DNA of 17,818 nt from a virus (lineage: Duplodnaviria > Heunggongvirae > Uroviricota > Caudoviricetes): IMG/VR virus record IMGVR_UViG_2713896903_000004; one strand, written 5' to 3'. Shown in pieces: positions 1,097 through 17,674 of this stretch (within the stretch, counting starts at the first letter, position 1; each line of letters starts with the position of its first letter). The translations under genes and the position numbers were made by a program. Under the pieces are notes generated by a model. It did not search any database. It saw only the letters and a program-made list of their open reading frames with translations, and had not been told where the DNA came from.

Positions 1097-2272
1097 ATGG
1101 ATATAACTTGTTTAGAATGTGGCAATGTTCTTGACGACCCAACTGTAGCTTGCGATAAATGCGGTGCCACGCCTCATGTTGTAGTGCTGGGCAAACAATC
1201 GTACTTTCCTATTGGTGCTGTAACAGCAAATCTTGAAAAAAATGATTCAAGAGCATTTGATTATCGATTAGGTGAAGTTTGGGATCTAAAAAATGAAGTC
1301 ACATCTGAATTCATAACCAGAATTGAGAAAAAATTTAGCCGAAAAAACAAATTTCATAACTTCCTAGACTCAGATCACAACCCTTCATCCATTCCTACGA
1401 TCCTAAAAAAATACATTAATAAAAATAATGAATTCATTGATTTATCTAGAGCTATAATAGAGAGGCTTAAACATAATGCTAATAACGAATCGAGAGTTGC
1501 CCAACTTCAGGGGGGGAGCGTTGTTTTCATCCACTATAAGTCTACCGAACCAGAGGATTTGGGGAAACTTCTAATCGTAATGGTTGATAAACAAAGCGCC
1601 TATGACTTTGATTCGGATAAGTTGACCCCAACAAGATTAAATCCAATTAATACCGATGCCTTACGGCAGGCTGCGATGTTCGATTTAACTTTATTCGAAG
1701 CCAGTTATCCAGAAAACAAGGGTGACTCATATGTACATTTCTTGCAAGGTAAATCTAAAAGCGATTTTTTCAAAGACTCATTAGGTTGCCGACATGATTC
1801 GGACAATAAAAGAAGCATTCAGCAATTATTCAGTGCTATAGATATTTTTGCTAGTAAAAACTCACTCGGTCGTGTACTGCGTGATACTATTGACAATGAA
1901 GTTAAATCCTTACTGGAAAAAAAATCAAAAGATAAACACGGAAATAAGTCCGTTAAGATAGAGGATATTTCAAAAATAATTGACTCATGCCTGACTGATT
2001 CACACAAATGTAAGGGAACGTTTGTCGATTTTGTTAATCTTAATGGTTTCCAGATTGACCCTCAATTTGAACCAACTCCTAAAGCAGCTGAAAGCGCGCT
2101 TACAATTGAAGTGGCAGATAACGACAATAATTTTAAGTTGAAAATAATGCGTGGAGCTATTGGAGACGAAAAGTCAAATAAGCCTGTAATTCTCACTGAC
2201 AACAAATGCGAAATTGTGATAAAATTGAGTCAGGCAAATTATGATGAACTCAAAAGATATAGAGACAGCTAA
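1097..2272 (+). CDS. Hypothetical protein with N-terminal C4 zinc ribbon; possible NdpA/YejK-like (nucleoid-associated) central region
   Basis: 391-aa ORF in an AT-rich block. CxxC...CxxC at residues 5, 8, 19, 22 (CLECGNVLDDPTVACDKCG). The central segment (GGSVVFIHYKS..., YVHFLQGKSKSDFF) resembles my recollection of the YejK/NdpA family but is unverified. Stop TAA is 2 nt before the next ATG. Confidence 0.8.
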   Translation: MDITCLECGNVLDDPTVACDKCGATPHVVVLGKQSYFPIGAVTANLEKNDSRAFDYRLGEVWDLKNEVTSEFITRIEKKFSRKNKFHNFLDSDHNPSSIPTILKKYINKNNEFIDLSRAIIERLKHNANNESRVAQLQGGSVVFIHYKSTEPEDLGKLLIVMVDKQSAYDFDSDKLTPTRLNPINTDALRQAAMFDLTLFEASYPENKGDSYVHFLQGKSKSDFFKDSLGCRHDSDNKRSIQQLFSAIDIFASKNSLGRVLRDTIDNEVKSLLEKKSKDKHGNKSVKIEDISKIIDSCLTDSHKCKGTFVDFVNLNGFQIDPQFEPTPKAAESALTIEVADNDNNFKLKIMRGAIGDEKSNKPVILTDNKCEIVIKLSQANYDELKRYRDS

Positions 2273-2274
2273 TA

Positions 2275-3489
2275 ATGACAATTGCTGATGACTTATCAAG
2301 ATTAGCGCAGATTATTAACGGAGCCTCAAGCAGAGTTGAGGGCTACTACACTGTCATAAGTCTTGAAGAAAGCATTGTTATTGTAAATAGTTCTGAAATA
2401 ATTAGACTGTTACAATCTATAGGTTATAAAAAGGCAACAACCTGCATCGAAAATAATGAAATTTGGCTAGATCGCCAAGCTTCATCTTGGGATGACGCTA
2501 TAATTTATGAGAATGTTGAGTCTTTTTGGTCTAGAGTAAACACCCAAAACGCTCTTCCGAAAAATTATATCATCGGAACGCCGTTAATACTCCCTACTTC
2601 TAAGAATGAAAGCATCGAAAAAATCCATATTTTCTTTATGTGGAAAGATATCCTTTCATTAATTGCTGATCATCATAACAGTGACTGCTCTGTCTTATTT
2701 TTCACCAATGAAGACAAAAGTTATACAGTCGAACTCACGCATTTTTTACAATATAGCGAGATTAATCGCTTATCGAACTCGTCTCTTAAATATGAAATTA
2801 TAAAGGAGCTTCTCGACACAATAAAAATCAATGATTTACACAAAAGCGAGCGCAAGCTCGTTATACGCTCAGCCATAAACGAAGTATTTAAAGCAAATGG
2901 TACGTTCAATTTCTTTGACTTGCTTAACTCTACTGAACTCGTCAGGAAAAAATATGATGAACTATATGAGATTTACACAAAGAGGTTTTCTGTAAATAAA
3001 ATTCTTAACGAACTCGATGAGAAAAATCTTGAGTTCACGAGTAAAATTAACGAATTCATATCATCTAATCAGACAAAAGCATTGACTATTCCCGGTGCAT
3101 TAATAGCAGCTGGTGGCTTAGTGAAGGCTAATGAAACAACCGAAGCAATATTGATTATCGCAGGACTTTGGATGATAAAAAAAGTCAATTACATTTCTAT
3201 TGAGATATTCAATGAAACATTCGACAACTTACGTTCTCGAGTGGAGTCCGCTTTCGATAAGTATTTAAAGTTTGAAGAAAATAAAGAAATCAAAGATAAT
3301 GCAGATAGTATTAAGAGTAGCATTACAGGTTTGATTGATAAAGCTAAAAAAAGGATGAGAACTGTTAAATATCTCGCATCAGCCATGTTTTATGGAGGCC
3401 TTATTTACGTTGGATATAAGCAGTTCCCAGTCTTTTTTGAAAAATCGGCAGTAAATCTATTTTATTTTTTATGCCATACTATAAGCTAA
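2275..3489 (+). CDS. Hypothetical protein with C-terminal hydrophobic (possibly membrane-inserting) segments
   Basis: 404-aa ORF translationally coupled to the upstream gene. Hydrophobic stretches LTIPGALIAAGGLV, AILIIAGLWMI and LASAMFYGGLIYVGY in the last third. No recognisable catalytic motif. Its last 21 nt overlap the 3' end of Q on the other strand. Confidence 0.8.
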   Translation: MTIADDLSRLAQIINGASSRVEGYYTVISLEESIVIVNSSEIIRLLQSIGYKKATTCIENNEIWLDRQASSWDDAIIYENVESFWSRVNTQNALPKNYIIGTPLILPTSKNESIEKIHIFFMWKDILSLIADHHNSDCSVLFFTNEDKSYTVELTHFLQYSEINRLSNSSLKYEIIKELLDTIKINDLHKSERKLVIRSAINEVFKANGTFNFFDLLNSTELVRKKYDELYEIYTKRFSVNKILNELDEKNLEFTSKINEFISSNQTKALTIPGALIAAGGLVKANETTEAILIIAGLWMIKKVNYISIEIFNETFDNLRSRVESAFDKYLKFEENKEIKDNADSIKSSITGLIDKAKKRMRTVKYLASAMFYGGLIYVGYKQFPVFFEKSAVNLFYFLCHTIS

Positions 3490-3825
3490 CATTGCTAAAC
3501 AGCCGTCAACAAACCCCATTGCAGTTTGCAGTTCCTTCCTAATTGTGCCATCAGAGCATTTTCTCTTCTTCGCAATAGTGCGTAATGAGATACCGATAAC
3601 AAAGTGGGCGATGATGAGCTCATATTCCTCTGGTTTATACCTTCTCAACCGAGCCACACAACTGTCTATCATGATGCCTTCATCATCATCGCACTGGAGA
3701 CGTGACTTTTTACCGTGTGGTAGAAGCCCCTTGAAACCAGCCGCTATCGGCTGCCAGTCGACACCACTATTTTCTGCTGCAGCCCAAGCCCCCCAACGAT
3801 CTAAAACTTCGTACATATCACGCAT
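3469..3825 (-). CDS. Late-gene antiterminator Q (small QuuD-type Q family)
   Basis: 118-aa ORF MRDMYEVLDRWGAWAA...IAAGFKGL...CSDGTIRKELQ matches my memory of the DLP12 QuuD-type Q family. GGAGG about 10 nt upstream of the ATG. Positioned between replication genes and the lysis cassette. Confidence 0.75.
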   Translation of the reverse strand: MRDMYEVLDRWGAWAAAENSGVDWQPIAAGFKGLLPHGKKSRLQCDDDEGIMIDSCVARLRRYKPEEYELIIAHFVIGISLRTIAKKRKCSDGTIRKELQTAMGFVDGCLAMLAYSMA

Positions 3826-4082: not shown

Positions 4083-5470
4083 AAGAAACGCTCCATCTTA
4101 CTGCTGTCAGTTCGTTTGTTGCTGTATCTGCGCGGCTGGGGCTGCTGCATTGGGGTGGAAAGAATCTGTGCGCTTTCCTGATCCACAGGCAGAAAATGTC
4201 CGTTATAAAAACGCCGGTAAATCGTCCCCAGAGAACCGTTACGTTGTTTCGTGATATTGATTTCTGCTATGCCCCGGGCCTGCGTATCCGGGTTGTACAC
4301 TTCATCCCTGTAAAGCATCAGAATGATGTCTGCATCCGCCTCTATTTCTCCGGAATTTTTCAGGTCTGAGTTCATGGGGCGTTTATTGGGTCTGGACTCC
4401 ACACCACGGGAGAGCTGGCTCAGCGCAATTAAGGGAAAACCACCGGATTTTGCCAGGCCTTTAAGCCCCTTTGAGATTTCACCCACGGCAAGGTCATGAC
4501 GCCCCGTGGTTCGGGTTTTTATCAGCCCGAGATAATCAACCACCACCAGCGCCGTTTCCGGATATTTAATCAGGTGGTGTTTCGTTGTTGCGCATATCTC
4601 GTCAATGGTCAGGTTCGCCTGGTCCACCATCCAGATATTGCGCCCGGTCATCCGCCCCACCCCTTGTGAGAAACGCGCCCAGTCTTCGTCTTCAAAGTGA
4701 GCGACAGATTTCAGACGTGATACCGGCATTCCTCCAGCCGCAGATACCATGCGCTCACCAATCTGGATGTTCGCCATTTCCATTGTGAACAGAAGAACAC
4801 CATGCCCCTGCTCAGTCACCTTGTCGATGATATCCAGCGCCAGTTCAGTTTTGCCCATTGACGGACGAGCCGCAATAAATACCAGGTCGCCGGGCTCCAT
4901 GCCGCCTGTTTTTGCGTCCAGTTCATCAATACCGGTCATCAACGTCCTGGATTTCTCCAGCCCCTGATTCCGGCATTCAACACGCTCAACCACTTCCGGA
5001 AGCACATCATCAATATGTACCGGCTGAATAACGCCCTTTTCCGTCGACAATGAGGCCATCATGTTCTGCGCATCCTTCAGGGCATCTTCAGCTGCTTCAC
5101 AGGTATGCGCATCACGTAATTTCTGCAACGCCTCATTCAGTGTTTTTTCTGCATCACGCAATGCGGCATTGCGACGCAACGCTGCAACATAGTGCTCCAG
5201 TGAAGACTTCACCCAGGTTTTACGCCCGGTATCAGTAATCACCGGAGCAAGTTCCGGCATCTCATTGCACAGCAGCACAGGATCAATCACACCTGAAACA
5301 CGAGCCTGTCTGCAGATGCCTGTGTAGATATCCCGATACGCTCGTACAGAAAAAACGTCCGCCGGTAGTGTGGCCAGAATATCCATCACTTCATGATCTG
5401 CCCCTCGCAGAAAAAACGCGCCAATGACAGCGCCTTCCAGGTCATCGTTACGCCAGACAGGAGAAGTCAT
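4079..5470 (-). CDS. Replicative DNA helicase, DnaB family
   Basis: 463-aa ORF with Walker A ARPSMGKT and typical DnaB C-terminal RecA-like motifs (LVVVDYLGLI, ALSQLSR). ATGA overlap with the upstream loader gene. Confidence 0.9.
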   Translation of the reverse strand: MTSPVWRNDDLEGAVIGAFFLRGADHEVMDILATLPADVFSVRAYRDIYTGICRQARVSGVIDPVLLCNEMPELAPVITDTGRKTWVKSSLEHYVAALRRNAALRDAEKTLNEALQKLRDAHTCEAAEDALKDAQNMMASLSTEKGVIQPVHIDDVLPEVVERVECRNQGLEKSRTLMTGIDELDAKTGGMEPGDLVFIAARPSMGKTELALDIIDKVTEQGHGVLLFTMEMANIQIGERMVSAAGGMPVSRLKSVAHFEDEDWARFSQGVGRMTGRNIWMVDQANLTIDEICATTKHHLIKYPETALVVVDYLGLIKTRTTGRHDLAVGEISKGLKGLAKSGGFPLIALSQLSRGVESRPNKRPMNSDLKNSGEIEADADIILMLYRDEVYNPDTQARGIAEINITKQRNGSLGTIYRRFYNGHFLPVDQESAQILSTPMQQPQPRRYSNKRTDSSKMERFF

Positions 5471-6345
5471 GCTGCCATACCTCTGATACGAGAACGATAG
5501 CTGGGCCAGTTAAACGACAACCAGTTGCGTCCCCCGTCTGTGATCCTGTCGGCAATGCGGGGGCTGATGAATGCCCACAACTCTTCCGGTGAAAGGTTGC
5601 TGATCAGGATGGTGGGCAGGATGCTTTCGTACCGGGCATTGATAATTTCCTGCAAAATAGCCATTTCAGCCGCGCTGCCAAACTGAACACCAACTTCGTC
5701 GATGATCAGCAAATCCATTGACGCATAATGCTCAATAACTTCATCCGCTGTTTTTTCGCTGTCATTCCGCCAGCAGTTTTTCACAGCACGGGTAAGGCGC
5801 ATCACGTCGGTGATCTCCACACTGGCCAGATAGTTACGGATGATGTGTTTTGCCATTGATACCGCCAGATGATTTTTCCCGGTTCCGCAACTACCAGTCA
5901 TAACAAGACTGGTACCGTTCTCCAGCATATCTGGCCAGTTCTCCGCATAGCGGCGACAGGCCGCAAGATTTCTGGCTGCGTCAGGATTAACCTCCAGATA
6001 ATTATCAAACTCGCAGTCCCGAAAACGCAGGGCAATTCCGGCGTTATCAGTCAGCTCTTCCGCCTTGAGGGACGACAGCTCCATGGTCAAATCGTTGGCC
6101 TCAGCGATCAAGCAGTCAGGGCAGCATGAAATTTTTTCTCTGTCCTCGCCATTACGATCGCTCCACACCAGTATATGCGTACTGTATTTACCGTGTTTTT
6201 CGCAATATCCGCGGCCTTCACGCATCAGGCAGGAACGATAAGGCCATGGCTTTTCGCCCTTCTGAGCAAATGCAATCTCTGCCCGTAACTCATCCATTCG
6301 CGCCTGTAGTCTTTTTTGTTGTTCACGCAGGTTAAACGTCATCAT
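5467..6345 (-). CDS. DnaC-like helicase loader (IstB-type AAA+ ATPase) with N-terminal Cys cluster
   Basis: Walker A GSCGTGKNHL and Walker B LLIIDEVG. N-terminal CEKHG...CCPDC. I prefer the ATG at 6345 (SD GAGGTGA 5 nt upstream) over the track's GTG at 6354. Confidence 0.85.
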   Translation of the reverse strand: MMTFNLREQQKRLQARMDELRAEIAFAQKGEKPWPYRSCLMREGRGYCEKHGKYSTHILVWSDRNGEDREKISCCPDCLIAEANDLTMELSSLKAEELTDNAGIALRFRDCEFDNYLEVNPDAARNLAACRRYAENWPDMLENGTSLVMTGSCGTGKNHLAVSMAKHIIRNYLASVEITDVMRLTRAVKNCWRNDSEKTADEVIEHYASMDLLIIDEVGVQFGSAAEMAILQEIINARYESILPTILISNLSPEELWAFISPRIADRITDGGRNWLSFNWPSYRSRIRGMAA

Positions 6346-7401: not shown

Positions 7402-8060
7402 GGGCGCACCTCCCATTGATTACGGCGGAAAGCGGTGTGACTGAGACTGGTTTCAGTTTCATGGAATGCTTCAATGCAGCTCTCGTAGTACCGCATTGTG
7501 CGCAGACTTAACCCAAGCTGAAGCATCATCAGGCCATCAAGGGTGATGTAATAACCACGCAGGGAGTCACCATAGATGTGATAAGTACCCGGTATGAAAT
7601 TGCGGGTAAAAAATTCGCGCGAGCAGTTCAGATACTCGATTTTGTCGACGATGTTCTGGTGCATGCGCTTGAAATGGCAGGCAACATGCAGGGAGAAAAT
7701 AACGGCCTTGCCGTTGACGACTTCGATTTTCAGGTATGGGGAAGTTGGGACAGTAGCCATGATGGCAGCCTCCTTGATCGGTGAAATACTTCCACCACCG
7801 GAAACGCCAATTTCGCTGGTGGTGAACTGAACGGGGTTGGCGTAACCGGTGATCAAGGAAACCGGCGCATCTTTCGATGCCCCCGCCCAGCCCACCATAA
7901 CTTTGATGTGAGCAAATGCGGACGATAAAAAAGACGCTGGCGCGTCATATATCGCCTTGATCAATTCCAGGACGCCAATCCCGGCACCCGCTTTATAAGG
8001 TGCAGAGACAGTGTAACGTCCCGAAATTGCAGAATCAATATTTAGGATTGAAACATTCAT
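7398..8060 (-). CDS. Hypothetical protein (220 aa) occupying the cII slot
   Basis: 663-nt ORF in ~50% GC DNA, co-oriented and coupled with the downstream early genes. No recognisable HTH or catalytic motif. Weak RBS at the annotated ATG. Confidence 0.6.
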   Translation of the reverse strand: MNVSILNIDSAISGRYTVSAPYKAGAGIGVLELIKAIYDAPASFLSSAFAHIKVMVGWAGASKDAPVSLITGYANPVQFTTSEIGVSGGGSISPIKEAAIMATVPTSPYLKIEVVNGKAVIFSLHVACHFKRMHQNIVDKIEYLNCSREFFTRNFIPGTYHIYGDSLRGYYITLDGLMMLQLGLSLRTMRYYESCIEAFHETETSLSHTAFRRNQWEVRP

Positions 8061-8137: not shown

Positions 8138-8163
8138 AGCCGGGTCACTACCCGGCTTTTTTT
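8138..8163 (+). terminator. Intrinsic terminator oriented for + strand transcripts (antisense to the early-right operon)
   Basis: 8-bp stem agccgggt / acccggct with loop cact, followed by tttttt (8158-8163) on the + strand. On the minus strand the hairpin is followed by cgcucaacg, with no U tract. Overlaps the Rha stop codon. Confidence 0.55.
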
Positions 8164-8870
8164 CACCGGTGCCAGCCAATAACCTGAAATAACCCCATTT
8201 TCGGGTGATACCAGCGAGTCCCTCGCTGTTCTGCTTCCTCCATAACCCGATAAAAAGCAGCCATAAACGGTTCCACAGCAACAATTGCGCGACGTGACAA
8301 CAATCCGTCCGGCGTCATGAACTCATGGGTGTCTGTAGGAATTTGATAGGCGTTCACCAGATTGCGGCATTTATCATCTGACAAACCGGTTTTTGCTTTC
8401 AGTTGGCGATATCCGGCATAGCCCTCACGAATGTTGCCCTTTTTGATTTGCTCAACTGTTTCGGCAACGTGGCTGACTTTTTCTTCCACCTGAGTGATCC
8501 GTTTCTGCTGACGAACAGCTTCAAGAGCCATCGCGGCAACCATTTCGATTTCGCTCATTGGCTTACGGATCTGTTCTTCCAGTTCGCGCCAGCGATCTAC
8601 CAGGCGGGCTGTGAATTCGGGACAAAGCTGTGCGACGACAATGATGCTGTCGCGCTTACCTTGTTCGCCTTCGAAGATGTAAGCACCTACATTTCGTTTT
8701 AATCCTAAGTTGTTGATTATTTCGAAATTCGCCATTGGCGCACTTCGAATAATCCCCTTATCCATGAGCCTTTCAATGCTGCGCTTAACATCTTTGTGTT
8801 GGCTGCCCACCAACTCTGCGATTTCAAGGCTGGTCATGGATGCTTTGCCGTTAAAAATTGCGGTGTTCAT
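8163..8870 (-). CDS. Rha-family phage regulatory protein / antirepressor-like
   Basis: 235-aa ORF. N-terminus MNTAIFNGKASMTSLEIAELVGSQHKDVKRSIERL is typical of the phage Rha domain as I remember it. GGAG 8 nt upstream. ATGA overlap with the cro-like stop. Confidence 0.7.
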   Translation of the reverse strand: MNTAIFNGKASMTSLEIAELVGSQHKDVKRSIERLMDKGIIRSAPMANFEIINNLGLKRNVGAYIFEGEQGKRDSIIVVAQLCPEFTARLVDRWRELEEQIRKPMSEIEMVAAMALEAVRQQKRITQVEEKVSHVAETVEQIKKGNIREGYAGYRQLKAKTGLSDDKCRNLVNAYQIPTDTHEFMTPDGLLSRRAIVAVEPFMAAFYRVMEEAEQRGTRWYHPKMGLFQVIGWHR

Positions 8871-9130
8871 TGTTGGTCTCCTGTGGGCTTGTCATCTTCT
8901 GTGTGCGCTAAGCTTGGATGTGGAAAAAGCTCTGGTAGGTCTGGACGAAATTCATACGCTTGGATCTTTCCGTCGACAGCTGCAACCAATAACGGCACAA
9001 ATTCTGGTGAAATCTTGTTCTTGCAGTTCAACCAATCGCAGACTGTTGACTGGGCCTTTCCGCATCGCTTGGCTAAGGCTTGCTGACTTCCAAGAATCTC
9101 AATAGCTTTCTCTATGGCTTTATGTTTCAT
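8867..9130 (-). CDS. Cro/YdaS-like HTH regulator
   Basis: 87-aa product from the ATG at 9130 (SD GGAG 9 nt upstream). HTH-like LGSQQALAKRCGKAQSTVCDWLN. Divergent from the repressor gene across a ~120-bp operator region. The track's longer 104-aa version has no RBS. Confidence 0.65.
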   Translation of the reverse strand: MKHKAIEKAIEILGSQQALAKRCGKAQSTVCDWLNCKNKISPEFVPLLVAAVDGKIQAYEFRPDLPELFPHPSLAHTEDDKPTGDQQ

Positions 9131-9152
9131 AATCGCATCTCCTATTGAACGC

Positions 9153-9181
9153 ATAATAACAACAGGAAAAGCGATATTCAA
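9153..9181 (-). promoter_or_regulatory. PR-like early-right promoter (TTGAAT-17-TATTAT) driving the cro-like gene
   Basis: On the minus strand, -35 TTGAAT (9181..9176) and -10 TATTAT (9158..9153) with a 17-nt spacer, ~20 nt upstream of the cro-like SD. Confidence 0.5.
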
Positions 9182-9197
9182 CGTTAAACCTAGAATA

Positions 9198-9217
9198 TTT
9201 ATCGGAAAGCCGATAAA
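9198..9217. promoter_or_regulatory. Operator-like perfect palindrome TTTATCGG-N4-CCGATAAA between the cro-like and cI-like genes
   Basis: 8-bp inverted arms with a 4-bp spacer, just downstream of a TAGAAT -10-like element (9191-9196) oriented toward cI. Related CGATAAACCGAT / ATCGGTAAACC motifs recur at the PL-like promoter. Confidence 0.5.
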
Positions 9218-9249
9218 CTAGCCAAGATAGAGAGGGGAGGAAAATCGCA

Positions 9250-9942
9250 ATGACATTTTCAGAACGACTTGATTTAGCTATGCGCAACGCAAAATTTACG
9301 CAAGGTAGGCTGGCCAAAGAAGTGGGTATGGCTCAGTCCAGTGTTAATCAACTACTTAACAAAGCCAACGGTTCCAGAAAAACAGTCGAAATAGCAAAAG
9401 TTTTGGGCGTTAACCCGGAATGGCTCGCATCGGGTGTTGGTCCAATGGAAATCGTGACCTCTGCAGACTCACACCAAATACGTAACATTTCTGAAGATTG
9501 GGTTACTGATTCGTATGTCGTGGATGTTTTAGACATCAGATATAGTTGCGGACCTGGTAGTTATAACTCTGATTTTCCTGACATTGTCAGATCTATAGCG
9601 ATAGAACCAGGATACGCATCAAGAGTTTTTGGCGGCAGACCAGCATCAGCAATCAAAGCAATAAACGCCCACGGCGACAGTATGAAAGGCACAATAGACC
9701 CTGAAGACTTGGTATTTGTAGATGTATCAGTTCGCACATTTAATGGTGATGGTATATACGCCTTTACATACTCTGGAACATCGCACATCAAAAGACTTCA
9801 AAAAATCAAAGATACTCTAACGGTGATATCTGACAACCCAGCTTACAAGGATTGGGCTATCGAACCGGAAGACTTCGAACAACTTCACATTGACGGAAAA
9901 GTAATTGTCAGTTGGCCTATGACACTACACCGTTTTGCATAA
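9250..9942 (+). CDS. CI-like prophage repressor (N-terminal HTH, C-terminal LexA/S24 autopeptidase domain)
   Basis: 230-aa ORF with GGAGG upstream. HTH-like QGRLAKEVGMAQSSVNQLLN. C-terminal S24-like motifs GDSM (Ser) and a downstream KRL (Lys). Confidence 0.85.
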   Translation: MTFSERLDLAMRNAKFTQGRLAKEVGMAQSSVNQLLNKANGSRKTVEIAKVLGVNPEWLASGVGPMEIVTSADSHQIRNISEDWVTDSYVVDVLDIRYSCGPGSYNSDFPDIVRSIAIEPGYASRVFGGRPASAIKAINAHGDSMKGTIDPEDLVFVDVSVRTFNGDGIYAFTYSGTSHIKRLQKIKDTLTVISDNPAYKDWAIEPEDFEQLHIDGKVIVSWPMTLHRFA

Positions 9943-9956
9943 GCAAAAATCATTTA

Positions 9957-9986
9957 ACCCGCCCACTCTTAAGTGGGCTTTTTTTT
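9957..9986 (+). terminator. Rho-independent terminator downstream of the repressor gene
   Basis: Stem gcccact / agtgggc (9961-9967 and 9972-9978) with loop ctta, followed by T8 (9979-9986). Confidence 0.7.
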
Positions 9987-9994
9987 GGAAAAAA

Positions 9995-10036
9995 ATCGAT
10001 AAACCGATTGACAGGTGAAATCGGTAAACCTATTAT
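9995..10036 (+). promoter_or_regulatory. PL-like early-left promoter (TTGACA-17-TATTAT) with overlapping operator-like repeats
   Basis: Consensus -35 TTGACA at 10008-10013, a 17-nt spacer and -10 TATTAT at 10031-10036. ATCGATAAACCGAT overlaps the -35 and ATCGGTAAACC lies in the spacer. Confidence 0.55.
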
Positions 10037-10085
10037 CTTGACATAGGTATCGAACTCACCAAAGCAATTATAGAGGATGAGAAAA

Positions 10086-10583
10086 ATGTCATCGTATATG
10101 GGATTACCAACAAATCAGCACGATGCTCTTGAGAATATTCAGCTCTTAGTAGGGGCTGGTGCACTACTGTATAGCAGCAATAACCCTGAGTTAATTGAAC
10201 TTGCCAGCTCCATCCTGGCTGTAACTCAAAAATATAGCCTCACCGCGTCACGTTTATGCAAACAAAATTTAGCTATTAATTCCCAGAATCGGATTCGCAC
10301 CCAACGCGAAGCCTGCGGCTTAACAACCGCCGAACTCGCCAGGCTGCTCGAACTCGATGAAGAAATCATCATCCAGTGGGAGAGTGGAGAGTATGAACCA
10401 ACCATCAGTATGCTTATCCCACTGGCTAATGTTCTTGGCTGCGATCCGATGTGGCTGTTAACTGGCGAGGTTACTCCTCCGGAGCAACCAAAAAGTGAGG
10501 AGCAGCAACACCATGACGCATCTCAACAAGTTTGCTCCTTATCTCGCGAAGCTCTTCTACGGAAGAACCAATACCAATGGTGA
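10086..10583 (+). CDS. XRE-family HTH protein (first gene of the early-left operon)
   Basis: 165 aa from the ATG at 10086 (SD GAGGA 8 nt upstream); the track's start at 10077 abuts the SD. HTH-like segment CGLTTAELARLLELDEEIIIQWESGEYEPTISMLIPLANVLGCDPMWLLTG. Confidence 0.6.
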   Translation: MSSYMGLPTNQHDALENIQLLVGAGALLYSSNNPELIELASSILAVTQKYSLTASRLCKQNLAINSQNRIRTQREACGLTTAELARLLELDEEIIIQWESGEYEPTISMLIPLANVLGCDPMWLLTGEVTPPEQPKSEEQQHHDASQQVCSLSREALLRKNQYQW

Positions 10584-10711
10584 CATAATCGCCGCTTCGC
10601 CCCTCAAGGTACATGCGAACATTTTTATCAATCATTGCGGAAACAGTCTCAATATGAAAACACTTCTGAGACTCGCTATATAGCAGAACATATAAGTCAG
10701 CTGAGGAAGCC

Positions 10712-11077
10712 ATGAAAAAGTTCGAAAACATAACTGTTCTCCATGTTGATGACTTTGATTATACAAACCCGAAACTTCTCCCGAAGGTTGTAAAGGCAAT
10801 AGATGTTGCCGATATAGTGATTAGAGGAAAGAGAATTGTCAAAAACAGGCTCGCATGCACTTCAGGAGCAATGACAGAAACAACCTCACAACAAGATGAT
10901 TATGAAGGCATTTGTCTGGAGCCTGATTCATTTGCGGTAAATGTTTATCATTTATTGCATGCAACACAGGTATTACATATGTCAAGTAATCACGAAACAA
11001 AAACACTTGGCAGCGAAATTCTGAATTTTGCATGTGAATATGCAAAAGCTGCTGCCGAAAAAGAATTAGCGCAATAA
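10712..11077 (+). CDS. Hypothetical protein (121 aa)
   Basis: ORF with SD GAGGA 4 nt upstream of the ATG. Moderately AT-rich. No recognisable domain. Confidence 0.6.
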   Translation: MKKFENITVLHVDDFDYTNPKLLPKVVKAIDVADIVIRGKRIVKNRLACTSGAMTETTSQQDDYEGICLEPDSFAVNVYHLLHATQVLHMSSNHETKTLGSEILNFACEYAKAAAEKELAQ

Positions 11078-11155
11078 CAATAAATATTCCCTGAATGTTT
11101 ATTACGGTTTTATCGCCGGAGATTGTTGCAACCTTTATTCGCAGGAGATTATGTT

Positions 11156-11269
11156 ATGACTTTCCTGAAACATAAGGCATCGTATAAAACTGCCTGCCTC
11201 ATTGCACAACATGGAGATTCTTATCTTCATATAGCCAACCTGTATTTGCGCAAAGCATATGGGAGATAA
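11156..11269 (+). CDS. Small hypothetical protein (37 aa)
   Basis: Below the ORF-track size cut-off. ATG preceded by AGGAG at an 8-nt spacing. Ends 4 nt before the next start. Confidence 0.25.
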   Translation: MTFLKHKASYKTACLIAQHGDSYLHIANLYLRKAYGR

Positions 11270-11273
11270 GTCA

Positions 11274-11462
11274 ATGGAAGAAAAACAACAAAACATAACA
11301 CATAAAAAAGTAAGAGTGTTGCTAACCATTGAAAATGGTGAAGTAATTTACTCAAAACATCTGTTGGATAGTGAATTCGTTGGCTGCATGGATACATTTC
11401 TGTGGATGGCAAAAAGAGCTGGCTACACGATTATTCCACCAGCAAAGGAGCAAACATTATGA
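11274..11462 (+). CDS. Hypothetical small protein (62 aa)
   Basis: ATG at 11274 with SD GGGAG 8 nt upstream. Its stop overlaps the start of the next gene (ATGA). Confidence 0.45.
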   Translation: MEEKQQNITHKKVRVLLTIENGEVIYSKHLLDSEFVGCMDTFLWMAKRAGYTIIPPAKEQTL

Positions 11463-12040
11463 ATCATTCAGAGTTCCGACCAGAAGTTACTCCACATGGC
11501 ATAAAAATTGGCAATACAACCATTGATTATGTTGAAGCTGTGCGGCGTCTTAATGATGGTGAATACGATTATCCAAATTCACGCGGTTTAAGAATCCTTC
11601 AGTGCCTTGCCGAAGCTGATGATGCCGGATTGCTGGGGAAATTTTCCATCGATATGAAGGTTGCACAATGGCGCTGGCTGTATGTAACGATATTTATAAA
11701 CGAAGAGGAATATAAGAACGGCACCATTGATATCTCGAACGAAAACGGAACTACAGGTCGCGCAGTTATTTATAAAGGGAAATATGGTTGTATGGGTATC
11801 TACCCGGGACCAATTCGCATTGCCCTGCAAAACCATGTCGAATGGGGATTTATTGAAAAATATGGTGAAGATGAAGGTATGGGGCGAGTTCTGTTTCTCT
11901 ATCAAAAAATGCTCATCGCAGATCCTGATAATGGTTTCATTGTTTCTGCTATGGGACGCGAAGGGCTTGAACTCCTTCTGGATGAAATGATTAACGACCT
12001 GAATACTCATGGTATGCCAGAAGCGCCAGTGACACATTAA
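11459..12040 (+). CDS. Hypothetical protein (193 aa)
   Basis: ATG at 11459 with SD AAGGAG 8 nt upstream, translationally coupled to the preceding small ORF. No recognisable domain. Confidence 0.65.
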   Translation: MNHSEFRPEVTPHGIKIGNTTIDYVEAVRRLNDGEYDYPNSRGLRILQCLAEADDAGLLGKFSIDMKVAQWRWLYVTIFINEEEYKNGTIDISNENGTTGRAVIYKGKYGCMGIYPGPIRIALQNHVEWGFIEKYGEDEGMGRVLFLYQKMLIADPDNGFIVSAMGREGLELLLDEMINDLNTHGMPEAPVTH

Positions 12041-12086
12041 ATATTAAGAAGAAAATAATTCTTCCAGTTTTTTACTAACCGTTTAT

Positions 12087-12194
12087 ATGAAAAGCAACCG
12101 TGAATTAAACAGAGTAAAACTGATTTTAATCCTTGCCACAGTGGTGACACTAACTGAAATTATTATTCTCTTTATTGCGCTGTCAGTCGGTTAA
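12087..12194 (+). CDS. Possible small hydrophobic peptide (35 aa)
   Basis: MKSNRELNRVKLILILATVVTLTEIIILFIALSVG forms a single predicted TM helix. No clear SD, so speculative. Confidence 0.2.
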   Translation: MKSNRELNRVKLILILATVVTLTEIIILFIALSVG

Positions 12195-12217
12195 AAATAT
12201 CGGGATACCACAGACCA

Positions 12218-12406
12218 ATGAGACTGTATTTCACAATAGTAATTTTACTGGCAATTATCGCATGCATTTACGGATTACTCGTTCCGTTCCTTATATCCAT
12301 GAAGGATACGATAGCAGTTATTTCTGGCTTTGCACTGGCGTTTCTGACCCCGCCCTGCATTTATGCCATTTACAAGGGTCTTTCTTTCACTAAGGATAAA
12401 AGATGA
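12218..12406 (+). CDS. Small membrane protein (62 aa, two hydrophobic helices)
   Basis: Hydrophobic stretches FTIVILLAIIACIYGLLVPFLI and VISGFALAFLTPPCIYAIY. Its stop overlaps the SPFH gene start (ATGA). Confidence 0.5.
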   Translation: MRLYFTIVILLAIIACIYGLLVPFLISMKDTIAVISGFALAFLTPPCIYAIYKGLSFTKDKR

Positions 12407-13230
12407 AAAAAATTATTTTTGCTTTAGCCATTGTTCTGCCGACTATTGGCCTCGTCGGTTGCGATCGCGTTGAACCAGGTAATGTTGGCATCAAGGTAAA
12501 TAAACTGGGCGACGACAAAGGCGTCGGTGAGGTGGTCGGTGTTGGTCGCTACTGGACAGGCTGGAACACTGAAGTTTATATCTTCCCGACCTTTAAGCAG
12601 ATGAAGACCTACGATGATCCATTCAGTTTCCAGATGAGCGATGGAACAACCATTGGTTACCACATCGGAGTAGCCTACAAGGTTGATCCATCCAAAGTTA
12701 CCACGGTGTTTCAAACCTACCGCAAAGGTGTGGATGACATTACCGACACCGACCTGCGCCAGAAGATAGCAGATGCACTAAATCGGCTGGCCAGCAAAAT
12801 GACCACCGACAAATTTATCGACGGCGGCAAGTCTGAGCTGCTGGATGCAGCTCTAAAAGATATTCAGGCAGAAATGACGCCCATCGGTATTCAGGTAATG
12901 AGCCTGTCTTATGTAGGTAAACCGGAGTACCCGCCAACCGTTATCGACAGCATTAACGCCAAAGTCACGGCAAACCAGAAAACCCTGCAACGCGAGCAGG
13001 AAGTAAAACAGCGCGAAGCGGAAGCCAACATGTTGCGTGCGGAGGCTGCCGGACAGGCAGATGCAATTCGCACAAAAGCTCAGGCCGAAGCCGATGCTAT
13101 TCGTTTACGCGGTGAAGCTCTGCGCCAGAACCCCGGTGTTATGGAGCTGGAAGCCATCAATAAATGGAACGGCACACTGCCGCAATACATGACCAGCGGT
13201 GCCAATACACCATTTATCCAGGTTAAATAA
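12403..13230 (+). CDS. SPFH/band-7 (prohibitin/HflC-like) domain lipoprotein
   Basis: Signal peptide with lipobox LVGC (MKKIIFALAIVLPTIGLVGC). SPFH-like core and an Ala/Glu/Arg/Gln-rich coiled-coil tail (QREAEANMLRAEAAGQADAIRTKAQAEADAIRLRGEALRQ). SD AAGGA upstream. Confidence 0.75.
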   Translation: MKKIIFALAIVLPTIGLVGCDRVEPGNVGIKVNKLGDDKGVGEVVGVGRYWTGWNTEVYIFPTFKQMKTYDDPFSFQMSDGTTIGYHIGVAYKVDPSKVTTVFQTYRKGVDDITDTDLRQKIADALNRLASKMTTDKFIDGGKSELLDAALKDIQAEMTPIGIQVMSLSYVGKPEYPPTVIDSINAKVTANQKTLQREQEVKQREAEANMLRAEAAGQADAIRTKAQAEADAIRLRGEALRQNPGVMELEAINKWNGTLPQYMTSGANTPFIQVK

Positions 13231-14353: not shown

Positions 14354-15667
14354 ATGGATAAAGTCAAATATCCAACAGGCGTCGAAAACCACGGCGGCAC
14401 ATTACGCATCTGGTTTAATTTTAAAGGTAAACGTGTCAGGGAAAATCTTGGTGTCCCTGACACTGCCAAGAACAGGAAGATCGCCGGGGAACTACGGACA
14501 TCGGTATGTTTTGCCATCCGCACAGGAAGCTTTGATTATGCTGCACAGTTCCCTGACTCCCCTAACCTTCAGGCTTTTGGGGTAAGTAAAAAAGAAATTA
14601 CGGTGAAAGAACTTGAAGAAAAATGGCTGGATCTGAAACGAATGGAAATCTCTGCAAATGCATTCAATCGCTATGAATCCGTTGCAAGAACGATGGTTCC
14701 GAAAATTGGAGGCAGCAGACTGGTGTCATCGGTAACTAAAGAGGAATTGCTGTATATCAGGAAAGATTTGCTGACCGGGTATCAGAATTCAACGAAAAAC
14801 AAAGCAGCAGCAAAAGGACGGAGCGTCGTTACTGTAAATTATTACATGACGACAATCGCTGGAATGTTTCAGTTTGCTGCAGATCACGGTTACTTAGAAG
14901 CAAATCCCTTCCAGGGAATTAAGCCTCTTAAAAGAGCCAGGGCAGAGCCAGATCCGCTAACTCGTGACGAATTTATTCGCCTGATAGATGCTTGCCGACA
15001 TCAGCAGACGAAAAACCTGTGGTCATTGGCTGTGTACACAGGAATGCGTCACGGTGAACTGGTCTCCCTGGCCTGGGAAGATATCGATCTGAAAGCAGGA
15101 ACTATTACTATCAGGCGCAATTATACGAAACTCGGTGAGTTCACTCTACCTAAAACTGAAGCAAGTACAAACAGGGTTGTGCATCTTATCCAGCCCGCTA
15201 TCAGTGTCCTGAAAAATCAGGCTGAAATGACAAGACTGGGTAAGCAGCACCACATCAAGGTTCAACTACGTGAATATGGGCGTTCAGTGAATCATGAATG
15301 TACTTTCGTATTTAACCCCCAGGTGGTTAGAAAAAGCAAACAGGTCGGTTTTATCTACAAGGTAGATTCTATTGGCGACTCATGGGAAACAGCCATTAAG
15401 CGTGCGGGCATCAGGCACCGGAAAGCATACCAGTCACGACACACTTATGCGTGCTGGTCGTTATCTGCCGGAGCAAATCCAAGCTTCATTGCCAGCCAGA
15501 TGGGCCATGCAAGTGCCCAGATGGTGTTCAATGTATACGGAGCATGGATGACTGACAGTAATGCAGAACAGATCGCAATGCTGAATCAGAAGCTGGCAGA
15601 TTATGTCCCAATGATGCCCCATAGTCACCAAAATGGCACAAAAGGCTTATTAAAATCAGTAAGTTAA
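14354..15667 (+). CDS. int: Tyrosine integrase (lambda/Rac-type with N-terminal arm-binding domain)
   Basis: 437-aa ORF with SD GGAGG 5 nt upstream. Catalytic-domain motifs TGMRHGEL, SRHTYACW and the tyrosine region NVYGAWM. Adjacent to the host junction. Confidence 0.9.
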   Translation: MDKVKYPTGVENHGGTLRIWFNFKGKRVRENLGVPDTAKNRKIAGELRTSVCFAIRTGSFDYAAQFPDSPNLQAFGVSKKEITVKELEEKWLDLKRMEISANAFNRYESVARTMVPKIGGSRLVSSVTKEELLYIRKDLLTGYQNSTKNKAAAKGRSVVTVNYYMTTIAGMFQFAADHGYLEANPFQGIKPLKRARAEPDPLTRDEFIRLIDACRHQQTKNLWSLAVYTGMRHGELVSLAWEDIDLKAGTITIRRNYTKLGEFTLPKTEASTNRVVHLIQPAISVLKNQAEMTRLGKQHHIKVQLREYGRSVNHECTFVFNPQVVRKSKQVGFIYKVDSIGDSWETAIKRAGIRHRKAYQSRHTYACWSLSAGANPSFIASQMGHASAQMVFNVYGAWMTDSNAEQIAMLNQKLADYVPMMPHSHQNGTKGLLKSVS

Positions 15668-15675
15668 TCCTTAAT

Positions 15676-16095
15676 ACCCGTCATGTTAACTGCGTAGAGG
15701 GCAACACTACTCTGTATGCACTGCCGAAAGCGGAAGTTGTGCTGCGCTGGCGTGAGCAAACCAGCGACGATTTCCGTTTTTGTTTTAAGTTCCCGGCAAC
15801 TATTTCGCATCAGGCTGCATTACGTCATTGCGACGATTTAGTGACAGAGTTTTTCACCCGTATGTCGCCGCTGGCACCACGCATTGGGCAATTCTGGCTG
15901 CAATTACCCGCTACCTTCGGTCCACGGGATCTGCCTGCGCTTTGGCATTTTCTCGATACTCTACCTGGCGAGTTTACCTACGGTGTGGAAGTTCGCCATC
16001 CGCTATTTTTTGCCAAAGGGGAAGAAGAACAAACGCTTAATCGCGGCTTGCATCAACGTGGCGTTAATAGGGTAATACTAATCAGACACGTTTAA
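15676..16095 (+). pseudogene. yecE: Start-less internal fragment of a host DUF72-family gene (yecE-like), bounded by two integrated elements
   Basis: The reading frame is open from directly after the int stop, with no ATG or RBS. The product (…NCVEGNTTLYALPKAEVVLRWREQTSDDFRFCFKFPATISH…) resembles my recollection of E. coli YecE. A stop follows shortly after the sequence changes character near 16075. Confidence 0.5.
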
Positions 16096-16150
16096 ATACA
16101 CCATCCAAAGCGATACAATCACACTATTAGTTTTTTATGGTGTATAAACT

Positions 16151-17674
16151 ATGAAACGTGCAATCAGTTACATCCGATTCAGTTCTGAGAAGCAATCCCG
16201 AGGTGATTCACTACGCCGACAATCGAAGTTGGTCACTGACTGGCTTAAAGCTCGTCCTGAGTATCATCTAGATGAATCTCTTACCTTCCGTGATTTGGGG
16301 AAAAGTGCTTTTAGCGGTAAGCACTTGAAAGGTGGCTTAGGCGACTTCTTAACCGCTATTGAGAAAGGGCTTGTAAGAGCTGGTGATACGCTCTTGATAG
16401 AGTCTCTTGACCGTCTGTCACGGCAAGATGTAGACCGAGCAAGTGAACTACTCAGAAACATCCTTCGCTCTGGTGTCGATGTGGTCACATTATCCGATAA
16501 TGAACACTACACAAAGGAATCTCTTAAAGACCCGTTAGCCTTGATTAAGTCAATCCTGATTATGCAACGAGCGCATGAGGAAAGTTTGAGGAAGTCTGAG
16601 CGTATACAGGCTGCATGGGATGCAAAGAAAGAAGCCGCTAAAGCTGGTATCAAGATTTCTAAGCGTTGCCCTGCATGGCTTAAGCTTAATAATGACCGTA
16701 AAAGTTTCTCTGTAATCCCTGAGAAGGTAGCGACGGTAAAGCGATGCTTCCAGCTACGGTTAGAGGGTAAGTCTATCTTGGAAATTGTCAGAACTCTTAA
16801 TAGTGAGGGACATCAGACGCTTAACCAGTACAAAGCGGGTAAATTTAGTCAGACTTCTGTGCAAGACCTTTTGAAGAATCGCTCTGTAATTGGTTATTTC
16901 ACCCCCAAAGGCTGTGAAGAAATTTCAAACTATTACCCCTCTATCATCCCTGAGACTGATTTCTACAAAGTCCAGCAACTATCATATCCTCGTTACGGTA
17001 GAAAACCTGCTTCAGATAAACCATTGAGTGTGAATCTTTTCAAGGGTGTTATCCGTTGTTCTGAATGTGGTCATGCTCTGATTATCACAGGCTTTAGCGA
17101 TACAAGGAACGGGATATATCGCTGCCCTCTTCGTAATGAAAACCGTTGCAGTGCTAAGGGTCTGTCACGTAAGCAAACTGATGGAACATTACTTGCTTTG
17201 CTCTCTCGTCTTGACCGATTTGAGAATGGTACAACGAATGCCATTGATACACTGAAGCTACACCGTGAACACATTTCAAACAATATTGAGAAGCTGGTAC
17301 AACTCTCACTTGAAGTCGAAGACCTGACCGCTATTACCAGCAAGTTAAAACAGTTAAAGGGGGAGTTATCACAGGTTGATGCTGATATTGAGAAGGAGGC
17401 ACAACGCCTTAAATCTATTGACGTGGGTTGTTTGTCTGATTGTGACTTGAGTACAAAGGCGGGAAGGATTGAAGCACAACTGATTATTCGTAGTGCTGTT
17501 AAAGAAGTTGTTTTAAACACTGCTAAACGTCGCTGTAGAGTAACTTTTCACAATGGCAAGGTGATTGACCTGTCGATAACAGAAAACCCCGCTCAGGACA
17601 TTACAGAGGCTGAAAAGTCGCTTACTGAAATTGCTGAGAAGGGTCTGTTAGATGTTGACGCCTTCCAACTGTAG
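16151..17674 (+). CDS. Large serine recombinase (resolvase-type catalytic domain, recombinase domain, zinc ribbon, coiled coil)
   Basis: 507-aa ORF. N-terminal ISYIRFSSEKQ...SLRRQ with the catalytic Ser in RFSS. Cys cluster CSECGH...CPLRNENRC. C-terminal coiled-coil region. Confidence 0.85.
   Translation: MKRAISYIRFSSEKQSRGDSLRRQSKLVTDWLKARPEYHLDESLTFRDLGKSAFSGKHLKGGLGDFLTAIEKGLVRAGDTLLIESLDRLSRQDVDRASELLRNILRSGVDVVTLSDNEHYTKESLKDPLALIKSILIMQRAHEESLRKSERIQAAWDAKKEAAKAGIKISKRCPAWLKLNNDRKSFSVIPEKVATVKRCFQLRLEGKSILEIVRTLNSEGHQTLNQYKAGKFSQTSVQDLLKNRSVIGYFTPKGCEEISNYYPSIIPETDFYKVQQLSYPRYGRKPASDKPLSVNLFKGVIRCSECGHALIITGFSDTRNGIYRCPLRNENRCSAKGLSRKQTDGTLLALLSRLDRFENGTTNAIDTLKLHREHISNNIEKLVQLSLEVEDLTAITSKLKQLKGELSQVDADIEKEAQRLKSIDVGCLSDCDLSTKAGRIEAQLIIRSAVKEVVLNTAKRRCRVTFHNGKVIDLSITENPAQDITEAEKSLTEIAEKGLLDVDAFQL

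Follow-up and report, generated by a model that had tools for sequence, protein, structure and literature searches.

The closest described counterpart of the DNA analyzed here is the early-left region of the Shiga-toxin phage phiP27. The stretch in question, hereafter called the window, comprises the 17,818 nucleotides (nt) of IMG/VR virus record IMGVR_UViG_2713896903_000004 and was found to represent a phiP27-like (Traversvirus) prophage of Escherichia coli, located at yecE. Within it, positions 10712-12040 hold four open reading frames (ORFs) of 121, 37, 62 and 193 amino acids (aa), which lie on the strand of the integrase gene int (+), between the immunity region (cI/cro) and xis/int. This block and its flanks are approximately 95% identical at the DNA level to phiP27, with the same gene order, and 96.6% identical to E. 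coli chromosomal prophages next to yecE. In phiP27 the block is annotated as L08, L07 and L06, all ‘unknown’, while the 37-aa gene is unannotated there. The sequences had been recorded before, among the hypothetical ORFs of phiP27 and in PHROG families: all four ORFs fall in PHROG families of unknown function, with end-to-end matches (families 5451/4587, 340 and 1515, and 6104 for an additional antisense gene described below; E-values of 1e-23 to 1e-89), and all counterparts other than that of the 37-aa gene are labelled ‘hypothetical’ or ‘unknown function’. Accession-based and topic searches of the literature returned no study of these genes. New contributions of the present analysis are the assignment of frames, the antisense gene with the conserved trio to which it belongs, the paralogy of one protein with a regulator domain, a microprotein family, and a 193-aa family without a known fold.

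A second point of comparison is the PL operon of phage lambda, with its ral, sieB, kil, cIII and ea genes, to whose region an earlier note on this DNA had assigned the block. That placement holds, as the block is situated between the cI-like repressor gene and int, downstream of a PL-like promoter with operator-like palindromes. It shares with the lambda operon the position between immunity region and xis/int, the small size of the encoded proteins, a variable gene content and, as predicted here, a repressor-controlled leftward promoter. In contrast, the four ORFs show no sequence or profile similarity to ral, sieB, kil, cIII or the ea genes, and, unlike lambda, the early-left arm of the window contains neither an N-type antiterminator nor Red/Gam genes, while its first gene encodes an XRE-type helix-turn-helix (HTH) regulator. 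A third comparison is offered by Bacillus subtilis, whose small protein SinI antagonises the HTH regulator SinR encoded next to it and is homologous to the multimerisation domain of SinR.

The block is interpreted here, tentatively and with slightly less than even confidence, as the promoter-proximal variable part of a repressor-controlled leftward early operon that carries two conserved modules of protein-binding small proteins. It would be silent in the lysogen and transcribed from the PL-like promoter (Table 1) after induction or infection, and its small, soluble and mostly acidic products would act most likely by binding other proteins. Module A (10077-11077) would consist of the XRE-type HTH regulator, an antisense 86-aa gene and the 121-aa protein, while Module B (11156-12040) would be a translationally linked 37/62/193 cassette with an early function for the phage itself.

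Four genes under purifying selection

All four ORFs listed in the earlier note are present, and ribosome binding sites were likewise found for all of them, each start being preceded at 4-8 nt by a Shine-Dalgarno sequence: GAGGA lies 4 nt 5' of the ATG at 10712 (121-aa ORF), AGGAG 8 nt 5' of the ATG at 11156 (37-aa ORF), GGGAG 8 nt 5' of the ATG at 11274 and within the final codons of the 37-aa ORF (62-aa ORF), and AAGGAG 8 nt 5' of the ATG at 11459 (193-aa ORF). The 37-aa stop codon precedes the 62-aa start by 4 nt, a junction that reads TAATAATG in two diverged relatives (L004 and L005), and an ATGA overlap joins the 62-aa and 193-aa ORFs. Two of the ORFs had been described as coupled; the 62/193 overlap bears this out, but the junctions indicate that three genes (37/62/193) are linked.

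For the analysis of selection, the region was aligned with five relatives, substitutions were counted per codon position, and the ratio of non-synonymous to synonymous differences (pN/pS) was calculated. The 37-aa ORF exhibits a pN/pS of 0.23, based on 26-31 differences that fall mostly in third positions (10/4/17 and 9/3/14 by codon position). Against the diverged relatives, values of 0.4-0.5 were obtained for the 62-aa ORF, of 0.17-0.29 for the 193-aa ORF and of 0.1-0.5 for the C-terminal half of the 121-aa ORF. The N-terminal half of the latter returned 0.35-0.6 against Salmonella and Citrobacter prophage homologues, in which the whole ORF measures exactly 121 codons. All four ORFs are real genes under purifying selection.

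The NCBI annotation pipeline PGAP annotates just the C-terminal 68 aa of the 121-aa ORF. From this omission, and because the few changes seen there in close relatives are all non-synonymous, the N-terminal half was at one point suspected to be non-coding; this was ruled out by homologues at 35-65% identity, which hold exactly 121 codons, those at 59-65% identity keeping the entire frame.

The block is moderately AT-rich, as previously remarked (GC 0.396, compared to 0.506 in the replication module). The four proteins had also been noted to lack a recognizable domain, and searches of Pfam, NCBIfam and PADLOC likewise returned no match for them or for the 86-aa ORF beyond sub-threshold noise (DUF1980_C, HTH_IclR, MsbB and Cas11a). 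The PDB, searched by sequence, contained no match for the single proteins. Profile and structure searches thus yielded no function-giving match in Pfam, NCBIfam, PADLOC, PDB sequences or known folds, and no homology to recombination or structural proteins was detected. None of the four proteins contains a membrane segment, their highest 19-residue Kyte-Doolittle means being 0.6-0.9 versus 2.9 for a neighbouring 62-aa membrane protein. At the nucleic acid level, intergenic RNA structure at 11072-11160 and 12030-12095 was indistinguishable from that of shuffled sequences, Rfam gave no match within the block, and repeats in 8800-12500 were limited to short two-copy matches, of which the sole useful pair (D6) led to the operator motif described below.

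Control region and predicted expression

The two divergent control regions of the window, cro/cI and cI/HTH, are exactly where the only two perfect copies of the palindrome ATCGN6CGAT occur in its 17.8 kb, and when one mismatch at most is allowed, 14 matches are found against 6.6 expected. At the cI/HTH region, a perfect and a one-mismatch copy accompany a PL-like promoter, which follows a terminator behind the cI-like gene (Table 1). We read these palindromes as a putative OR and OL with a putative PL promoter, at which the early-left operon probably begins. From 10100 to 12040 on the + strand, no terminator-like site was detected, and promoter-like sites were not above chance (10 versus 10.0 expected over the scanned region, in a consensus scan only). 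Since the promoter bears putative operators and neither an internal terminator nor an above-chance promoter follows it, the most likely pattern for the four ORFs is repression in the lysogen and expression at an early stage.

This predicted expression pattern bears directly on the suggestion, made in the earlier note, that the block may serve superinfection exclusion. Such a function, or a prophage-encoded defence, would call for expression in the lysogen, and the map position does recall that of lambda sieB and rex; moreover, the 86-aa gene runs counter to the early operon and possesses a candidate TATAAT -10 hexamer of its own, so that it could be expressed in a lysogen. The four ORFs, however, lie downstream of a promoter with putative operators, under predicted repressor control and with own promoter-like sites not above chance; no membrane segment is present in any of them, unlike in SieB or RexB, and PADLOC returned no match. 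Only the 86-aa gene, which was not listed in the earlier note, fits this explanation. Exclusion from the lysogen by the four ORFs is therefore unlikely, and lysogen-expressed exclusion or defence as an explanation of the block is regarded as quite improbable.

The N-terminal segment of the HTH regulator gene (10077-10293) is a mosaic exchange, as homology to the closest E. coli prophage starts at 10294 only, and the regulator likewise differs from that of phiP27 in having another N-terminal segment. The same cI and HTH gene pair (98-100% identical) was found in two IMG/VR contigs, L066 and L075, with other genes downstream.

The HTH regulator, the antisense gene and the 121-aa protein

The first gene of the operon encodes a regulator with a helical N-domain (residues 4-58) and an HTH (residues 73-127). 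Beyond approximately residue 135 its tail is not conserved and reads through into sequence antisense to the 86-aa gene: it contains stops in phage ASU11, exhibits a pN/pS of 1.6, and the same protein ends at 139 aa in L066. The 121-aa protein was shown to be related to this regulator. PHROG cross-hits connect its C-terminal ~65 aa (phrog_4587) with the N-terminal part of the adjacent HTH regulator, and BLASTP of the C-domain against the regulator N-domain gave an E-value of 0.002. In profile comparisons (hhalign), the small domain matched residues 21-74 of the regulator of the closest E. coli prophage (L001) with 95.7% probability (E 1e-8; 41% identity over 54 aa), and residues 4-58 of the window's own regulator with 88% probability (E 3e-6). 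In phages lacking the 86-aa gene, the regulator is followed directly by one to three such domains of 63-68 aa as free-standing proteins.

The arrangement resembles SinI/SinR of B. subtilis in that a small protein encoded beside an XRE-type HTH regulator shares the non-DNA-binding helical domain of that regulator. It differs in that the shared domain is N-terminal to the HTH here and C-terminal in SinR, that there is no sequence relation, the 121-aa protein having no Pfam match at all and thus standing outside the SinI/SinR families, and that the 121-aa form has an additional 53-aa N-terminal extension. By analogy, the 121-aa protein is proposed to act as a modulator that binds the regulator, being SinI/SinR-like in mechanism and not in family. 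Given that its C-terminal helical domain is paralogous to the regulator's non-DNA-binding domain, this domain would pair with the regulator N-domain in a heterodimer and modulate the regulator as SinI antagonises SinR. The kinship with the neighbouring regulator points to regulation as the role of the 121-aa protein.

Between regulator and 121-aa protein, on the opposite strand, lies the 86-aa gene, which was absent from the earlier note. At its start it shares 20 nt with the beginning of the 121-aa gene, and at its 3' end it extends into the unconserved tail of the HTH ORF. Compared to ASU11, the 86-aa frame contains 62 differences (16/11/35 by codon position), no stops, and a pN/pS of 0.27, whereas the same DNA read on the + strand as HTH ORF tail contains stops and gives a ratio of 1.6; for the non-overlapping core, pN/pS is 0.14-0.16 versus Salmonella and Citrobacter homologues. 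Homologous proteins of 82-88 aa occur in E. albertii, Salmonella and Citrobacter. In Salmonella and Citrobacter prophages, the HTH regulator, the 86-aa gene and the 121-aa gene form a trio with identical overlaps, and the GGAG Shine-Dalgarno of the 86-aa gene, which is the antisense of conserved VLH codons of the 121-aa protein, is kept in all of them. The candidate TATAAT hexamer is no more than partly conserved in distant relatives and was not picked up by the two-hexamer promoter scan. A GIY-YIG nuclease fold was considered for the 86-aa protein, in which, however, neither the motifs of this fold nor profile similarity to it were found.

PGAP leaves the 86-aa gene unannotated in the closest E. 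coli genome, and in phiP27 an insertion carrying L09 cuts it to its first 36 codons. In phages without it, the 121-aa protein is represented solely by its 63-68-aa version, directly after a shorter (139 aa) HTH protein. As absence of the gene and the short form go together, the 86-aa gene and the 53-codon N-terminal extension behave as one inserted unit. The gene probably has its own promoter and would thereby escape PL control; it alone appears placed to do so.

Several observations weigh against a reading of the block as a repressor-controlled operon with a SinI-like modulator. The N-domain variant of the window regulator differs from the variant most similar to the 121-aa protein, and L066 combines the same regulator with other small paralogues, such that partner pairs do not follow a simple one-to-one co-variation. 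Promoter, operators and timing are predicted at the level of consensus matches. Lack of homology cannot separate regulation from anti-defence, and the location of 193-aa family members beside a DUF927 primase/helicase, detailed below, would fit a replication-linked role equally well.

The 37/62/193 cassette

The 37-aa microprotein (pI 9.8) belongs to a tightly conserved family with the consensus MTFIxDKxAY+TAxL...G...LYL+KAYG+. Homologues occur in ~70 prophage loci, always just after regulator genes and at the head of the cassette, and are usually unannotated, as is that of the Salmonella phage Fels-1 of S. Typhimurium LT2 (L093, 4501-4605).

The 193-aa protein returned close enterobacterial relatives only in a word-indexed search, while an exhaustive profile search revealed a family of ~117 clusters at 50% identity, nearly all of them stand-alone proteins of ~200 aa; the family is acidic (median pI 4.9). 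Conserved positions include WRW 71-73, NG 87-88, Y105, R120, E128, Y148, G166 and the C-terminal His193. An AlphaFold model of the protein is confident (pLDDT 85.5, pTM 0.82) and matches no known fold, nor did a 47-member family profile match any PDB sequence. Pfam gave no match for 47 family members and 10 longer homologues, and hence no informative fusions. The C-terminal ~80 residues recur as short stand-alone paralogues (phrog_1737; hhalign 87-94%) in the same operon of relatives. Temperate phages that infect Klebsiella, Escherichia and other hosts carry homologues of the 193-aa protein, as do prophage-like ‘plasmids’.

A different neighbourhood was observed in two alpA-carrying viral contigs, L081 (5616-8739) and L082 (3416-6539), in which the 193-aa homologue follows a 127-aa short paralogue and lies 10 nt upstream of a gene for a DUF927 primase/helicase, itself followed by an SSB-like gene. 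This context would suit a replication or recombination accessory, as would an early-left arm in which no Red, RecET or Erf-type genes were seen. The acidic pI of 4.9, however, argues against DNA binding, and the gene is far from the replication genes in lambdoid relatives; such a role for the 193-aa protein is accordingly thought improbable.

The 62-aa protein shows a weak match to the C-terminal part of the antirepressor family phrog_4792; in direct comparisons with the antirepressors of the window and its relatives no similarity was found, which leaves this weak PHROG match only. Its genomic neighbours in relatives raise the possibility of an addiction-module remnant, with the 62-aa protein as an orphan antitoxin-like partner of a toxin retained elsewhere. 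A 73-aa ParE-like gene (PF24732, E 1e-19) lies between the 62-aa and 193-aa homologues at L066 5722-5943 and L020 5352-5573, and is present in 67 of 89 related loci, in 34 of which it is next to a 62-aa homologue. As in type II toxin-antitoxin systems of the ParE kind, the ParE-like gene in relatives comes immediately after the 62-aa homologue: it does so in 34 of the 44 loci that possess the latter, and in L066 its start lies 29 nt ahead of the stop codon of that homologue. In the window, the ATGA junction joins the 62-aa gene to its downstream neighbour in a way that a deletion of the genes in between could have produced. Pairing is nevertheless inconsistent: 33 ParE-like loci have no detectable 62-aa homologue, in L009 (about 5346-5567) the ParE-like gene follows a phrog_1737 gene instead, and in ten loci, the window among them, the 62-aa gene occurs but ParE does not. 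No ParE-like ORF is present in the window or elsewhere in the phiP27 group, and the 62-aa protein contains no antitoxin domain. Because the ParE-like gene also occurs without a 62-aa homologue, an antitoxin role of the 62-aa protein is weakly suggested at best, and the addiction-remnant explanation is considered very improbable.

Across the 89 loci, the commonest gene order is 37-aa, phrog_1737, (62-aa), ParE-like, phrog_1886, 193-aa; the shortest arrangement (121-aa, 37-aa, 62-aa, 193-aa) is that of the phiP27 group, to which the window belongs. The order from the 37-aa to the 193-aa gene is conserved in ~80 loci, with variable genes between them. This conservation is relevant to the earlier remark that the lambdoid early-left region commonly holds ‘morons’: the location of the four ORFs and their character as early accessory genes are supported, but a description as variable morons does not suit the 37-aa and 193-aa genes, which are conserved landmarks of the operon.

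Anti-restriction or anti-defence functions had been suggested for the block as well. According to this explanation, the 37/62/193 cassette, and perhaps the 121-aa protein, would act as early inhibitors of restriction, RecBCD or abortive-infection systems by binding a host effector. The early-operon position with its predicted repressor control, the small, soluble and acidic nature of the proteins, low GC content in mosaic surroundings, the 193-aa fold without a known counterpart, and an early-left arm in which Gam, Abc2 or Ral cannot be recognized are all consistent with such activity. No similarity to known anti-defence families was found, however, in Pfam, NCBIfam, PHROGs or PADLOC, none of which is a dedicated anti-defence profile library. 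In a published analysis, DefenseFinder, applied to eight enterohaemorrhagic E. coli phages, reported methyltransferase-type anti-restriction-modification genes in all but one and Ral or Gam in other phages; one of the eight is >95% identical to phiP27, and no hit was named that would map to this block (PMC12502783). Furthermore, the 37-aa and 193-aa genes are core landmarks across ~80 prophages, unlike the usual presence/absence pattern of anti-defence genes, and the 121-aa protein is related to a phage regulator. Counter-defence is thus viewed as a possible but rather unlikely function of the cassette. Nothing found here speaks positively for an anti-restriction, anti-defence or exclusion function, and overall the four ORFs are ordinary early accessory genes of a lambdoid prophage. 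Under the operon interpretation favoured here, Module B would serve host takeover, the tuning of lysis versus lysogeny, or counter-defence, and not a lysogen-expressed exclusion system.

Genomic context and neighbouring elements

The features discussed above and the landmark genes of the window are collected in Table 1.

Table 1. Positions of genes, domains and control elements in the window
Feature	Coordinates	Strand	Remarks
121-aa protein (phiP27 L08, phrog_5451)	10712-11077	+	
N-half of 121-aa protein	10712-10870	+	Occurs only together with the 86-aa gene
C-domain of 121-aa protein, phrog_4587	10871-11077	+	Paralogue of the N-domain of adjacent HTH regulators
37-aa basic microprotein	11156-11269	+	
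62-aa protein (phiP27 L07, phrog_340)	11274-11462	+	
193-aa acidic protein (phiP27 L06, phrog_1515)	11459-12040	+	
XRE/HTH_3 regulator, 168 aa, phrog_4836 ‘CII-like’	10077-10583	+	First gene of the operon
86-aa gene, phrog_6104	10471-10731	-	phrog_6104 match, E 1e-49
Candidate -10 hexamer TATAAT for the 86-aa gene	10758-10763	-	~27 nt before its ATG, within the 121-aa gene
Intrinsic terminator after the cI-like repressor gene, GCCCACTCTTAAGTGGGC then T8	9961-9986 (9961-9978 without the T8)	+	Strong
PL-like promoter, TTGACA-17-TATTAT	10008-10036	+	Consensus match only, 11/12 positions
Perfect ATCGN6CGAT palindrome, operator-like	9995-10008		Abuts the -35 hexamer
ATCGN6CGAT copy with 1 mismatch, operator-like	10020-10033		In the promoter spacer
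Perfect ATCGN6CGAT palindrome	9201-9214		Between the cro-like gene and cI
Mosaic junction at the 193-aa stop codon, then weak AT-rich hairpin and T-run	12040-12075	+	Folding z-score -0.9, not significant
Q	3469-3825	-	
Rha	8163-8870	-	
cro-like gene	8867-9181	-	
cI-like repressor, S24 domain and HTH	9250-9942	+	
SPFH protein	12403-13230	+	
int	14354-15667	+	

When a 2.1-kb query was compared to 5,426 complete E. coli genomes, some part of it was present in 368, and 80% or more of it in 67. The prophage of the best-matching genome adjoins yecE, yecN and cmoA, and its genes are arranged in the order Q, DnaB, helicase loader, Ash/Rha, cro-like, cI-like, HTH regulator, small hypothetical genes, SPFH protein, DUF5406, DUF4222, xis and int, which is also the order in phiP27. 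The region is mosaic among relatives, with junctions at 10294, at about 10470-10625 and at 12040, and architectures differ across the 89 loci.

Downstream of the last of these junctions, a membrane/SPFH cassette is exchanged separately from the block: by inspection of the alignment it is ~97% identical to that of an Stx2d phage whose 193-aa gene is just 78% identical, and it is absent from ASU11 and PhiR49_2. Three genes, exchanged together, make up this cassette (12087-13230, +): a hydrophobic ORF of 35 aa, the gene of a 62-aa membrane protein (phrog_1130) and, ATGA-coupled to the latter, that of an SPFH/Band-7 lipoprotein. It represents a better candidate than the four ORFs for membrane-level exclusion or an FtsH-related function.

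Three further observations concern other parts of the window. In the early-right arm, within or beside the Ash/Rha-type gene, Rfam matches above the gathering score were obtained for C4 antisense RNA (7815-7902, -; 82 bits) and for the small RNA isrK (7927-8003, -; 64 bits), which suggests a P1/Gifsy-like antisense control of an antirepressor or antiterminator. On the strand opposite to the Q antiterminator gene, a two-gene AT-rich insert (1097-3489, +; GC 0.35) encodes a 391-aa protein resembling the nucleoid-associated protein NA37 (PF04245, 5.5e-24) and a 404-aa protein without a domain, neither of which has a PADLOC match; it looks like a moron at the position where Shiga-toxin (Stx) phages carry stx. 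Finally, a truncated DUF72 (yecE-like) ORF after int, followed by the gene for a 507-aa large serine recombinase (15739-17674, +), looks like a second element that integrated in tandem at the same site.

Implications

A more specific scenario would combine the two modules: the XRE regulator, the 121-aa protein and the antisense 86-aa gene would form a switch that gates early-left or lysogen-specific expression, while the 37/62/193 cassette, whose 193-aa protein would have a new fold, would inhibit a host defence or repair target early after induction. We consider both parts holding together unlikely.

The phiP27-type prophages include Shiga-toxin-converting phages, and their early-left operons consist almost wholly of proteins of unknown function. 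Homologues of the 193-aa protein are present in many Klebsiella temperate phages, and the 37-aa gene in Salmonella phage Fels-1. For this region the real reading frames have now been identified, including those of the 37-aa microprotein, which is largely unannotated, and of the 86-aa gene; one protein, of 121 aa, was recognized as a detached copy of a regulator's partner domain, and the 193-aa family was shown to combine a confident model with no known fold. Assays of interaction, induction and counter-defence thereby gain concrete targets. Should the 37/62/193 cassette indeed be a host-takeover or anti-defence module, it would constitute a new family; otherwise the region would be ordinary accessory DNA.

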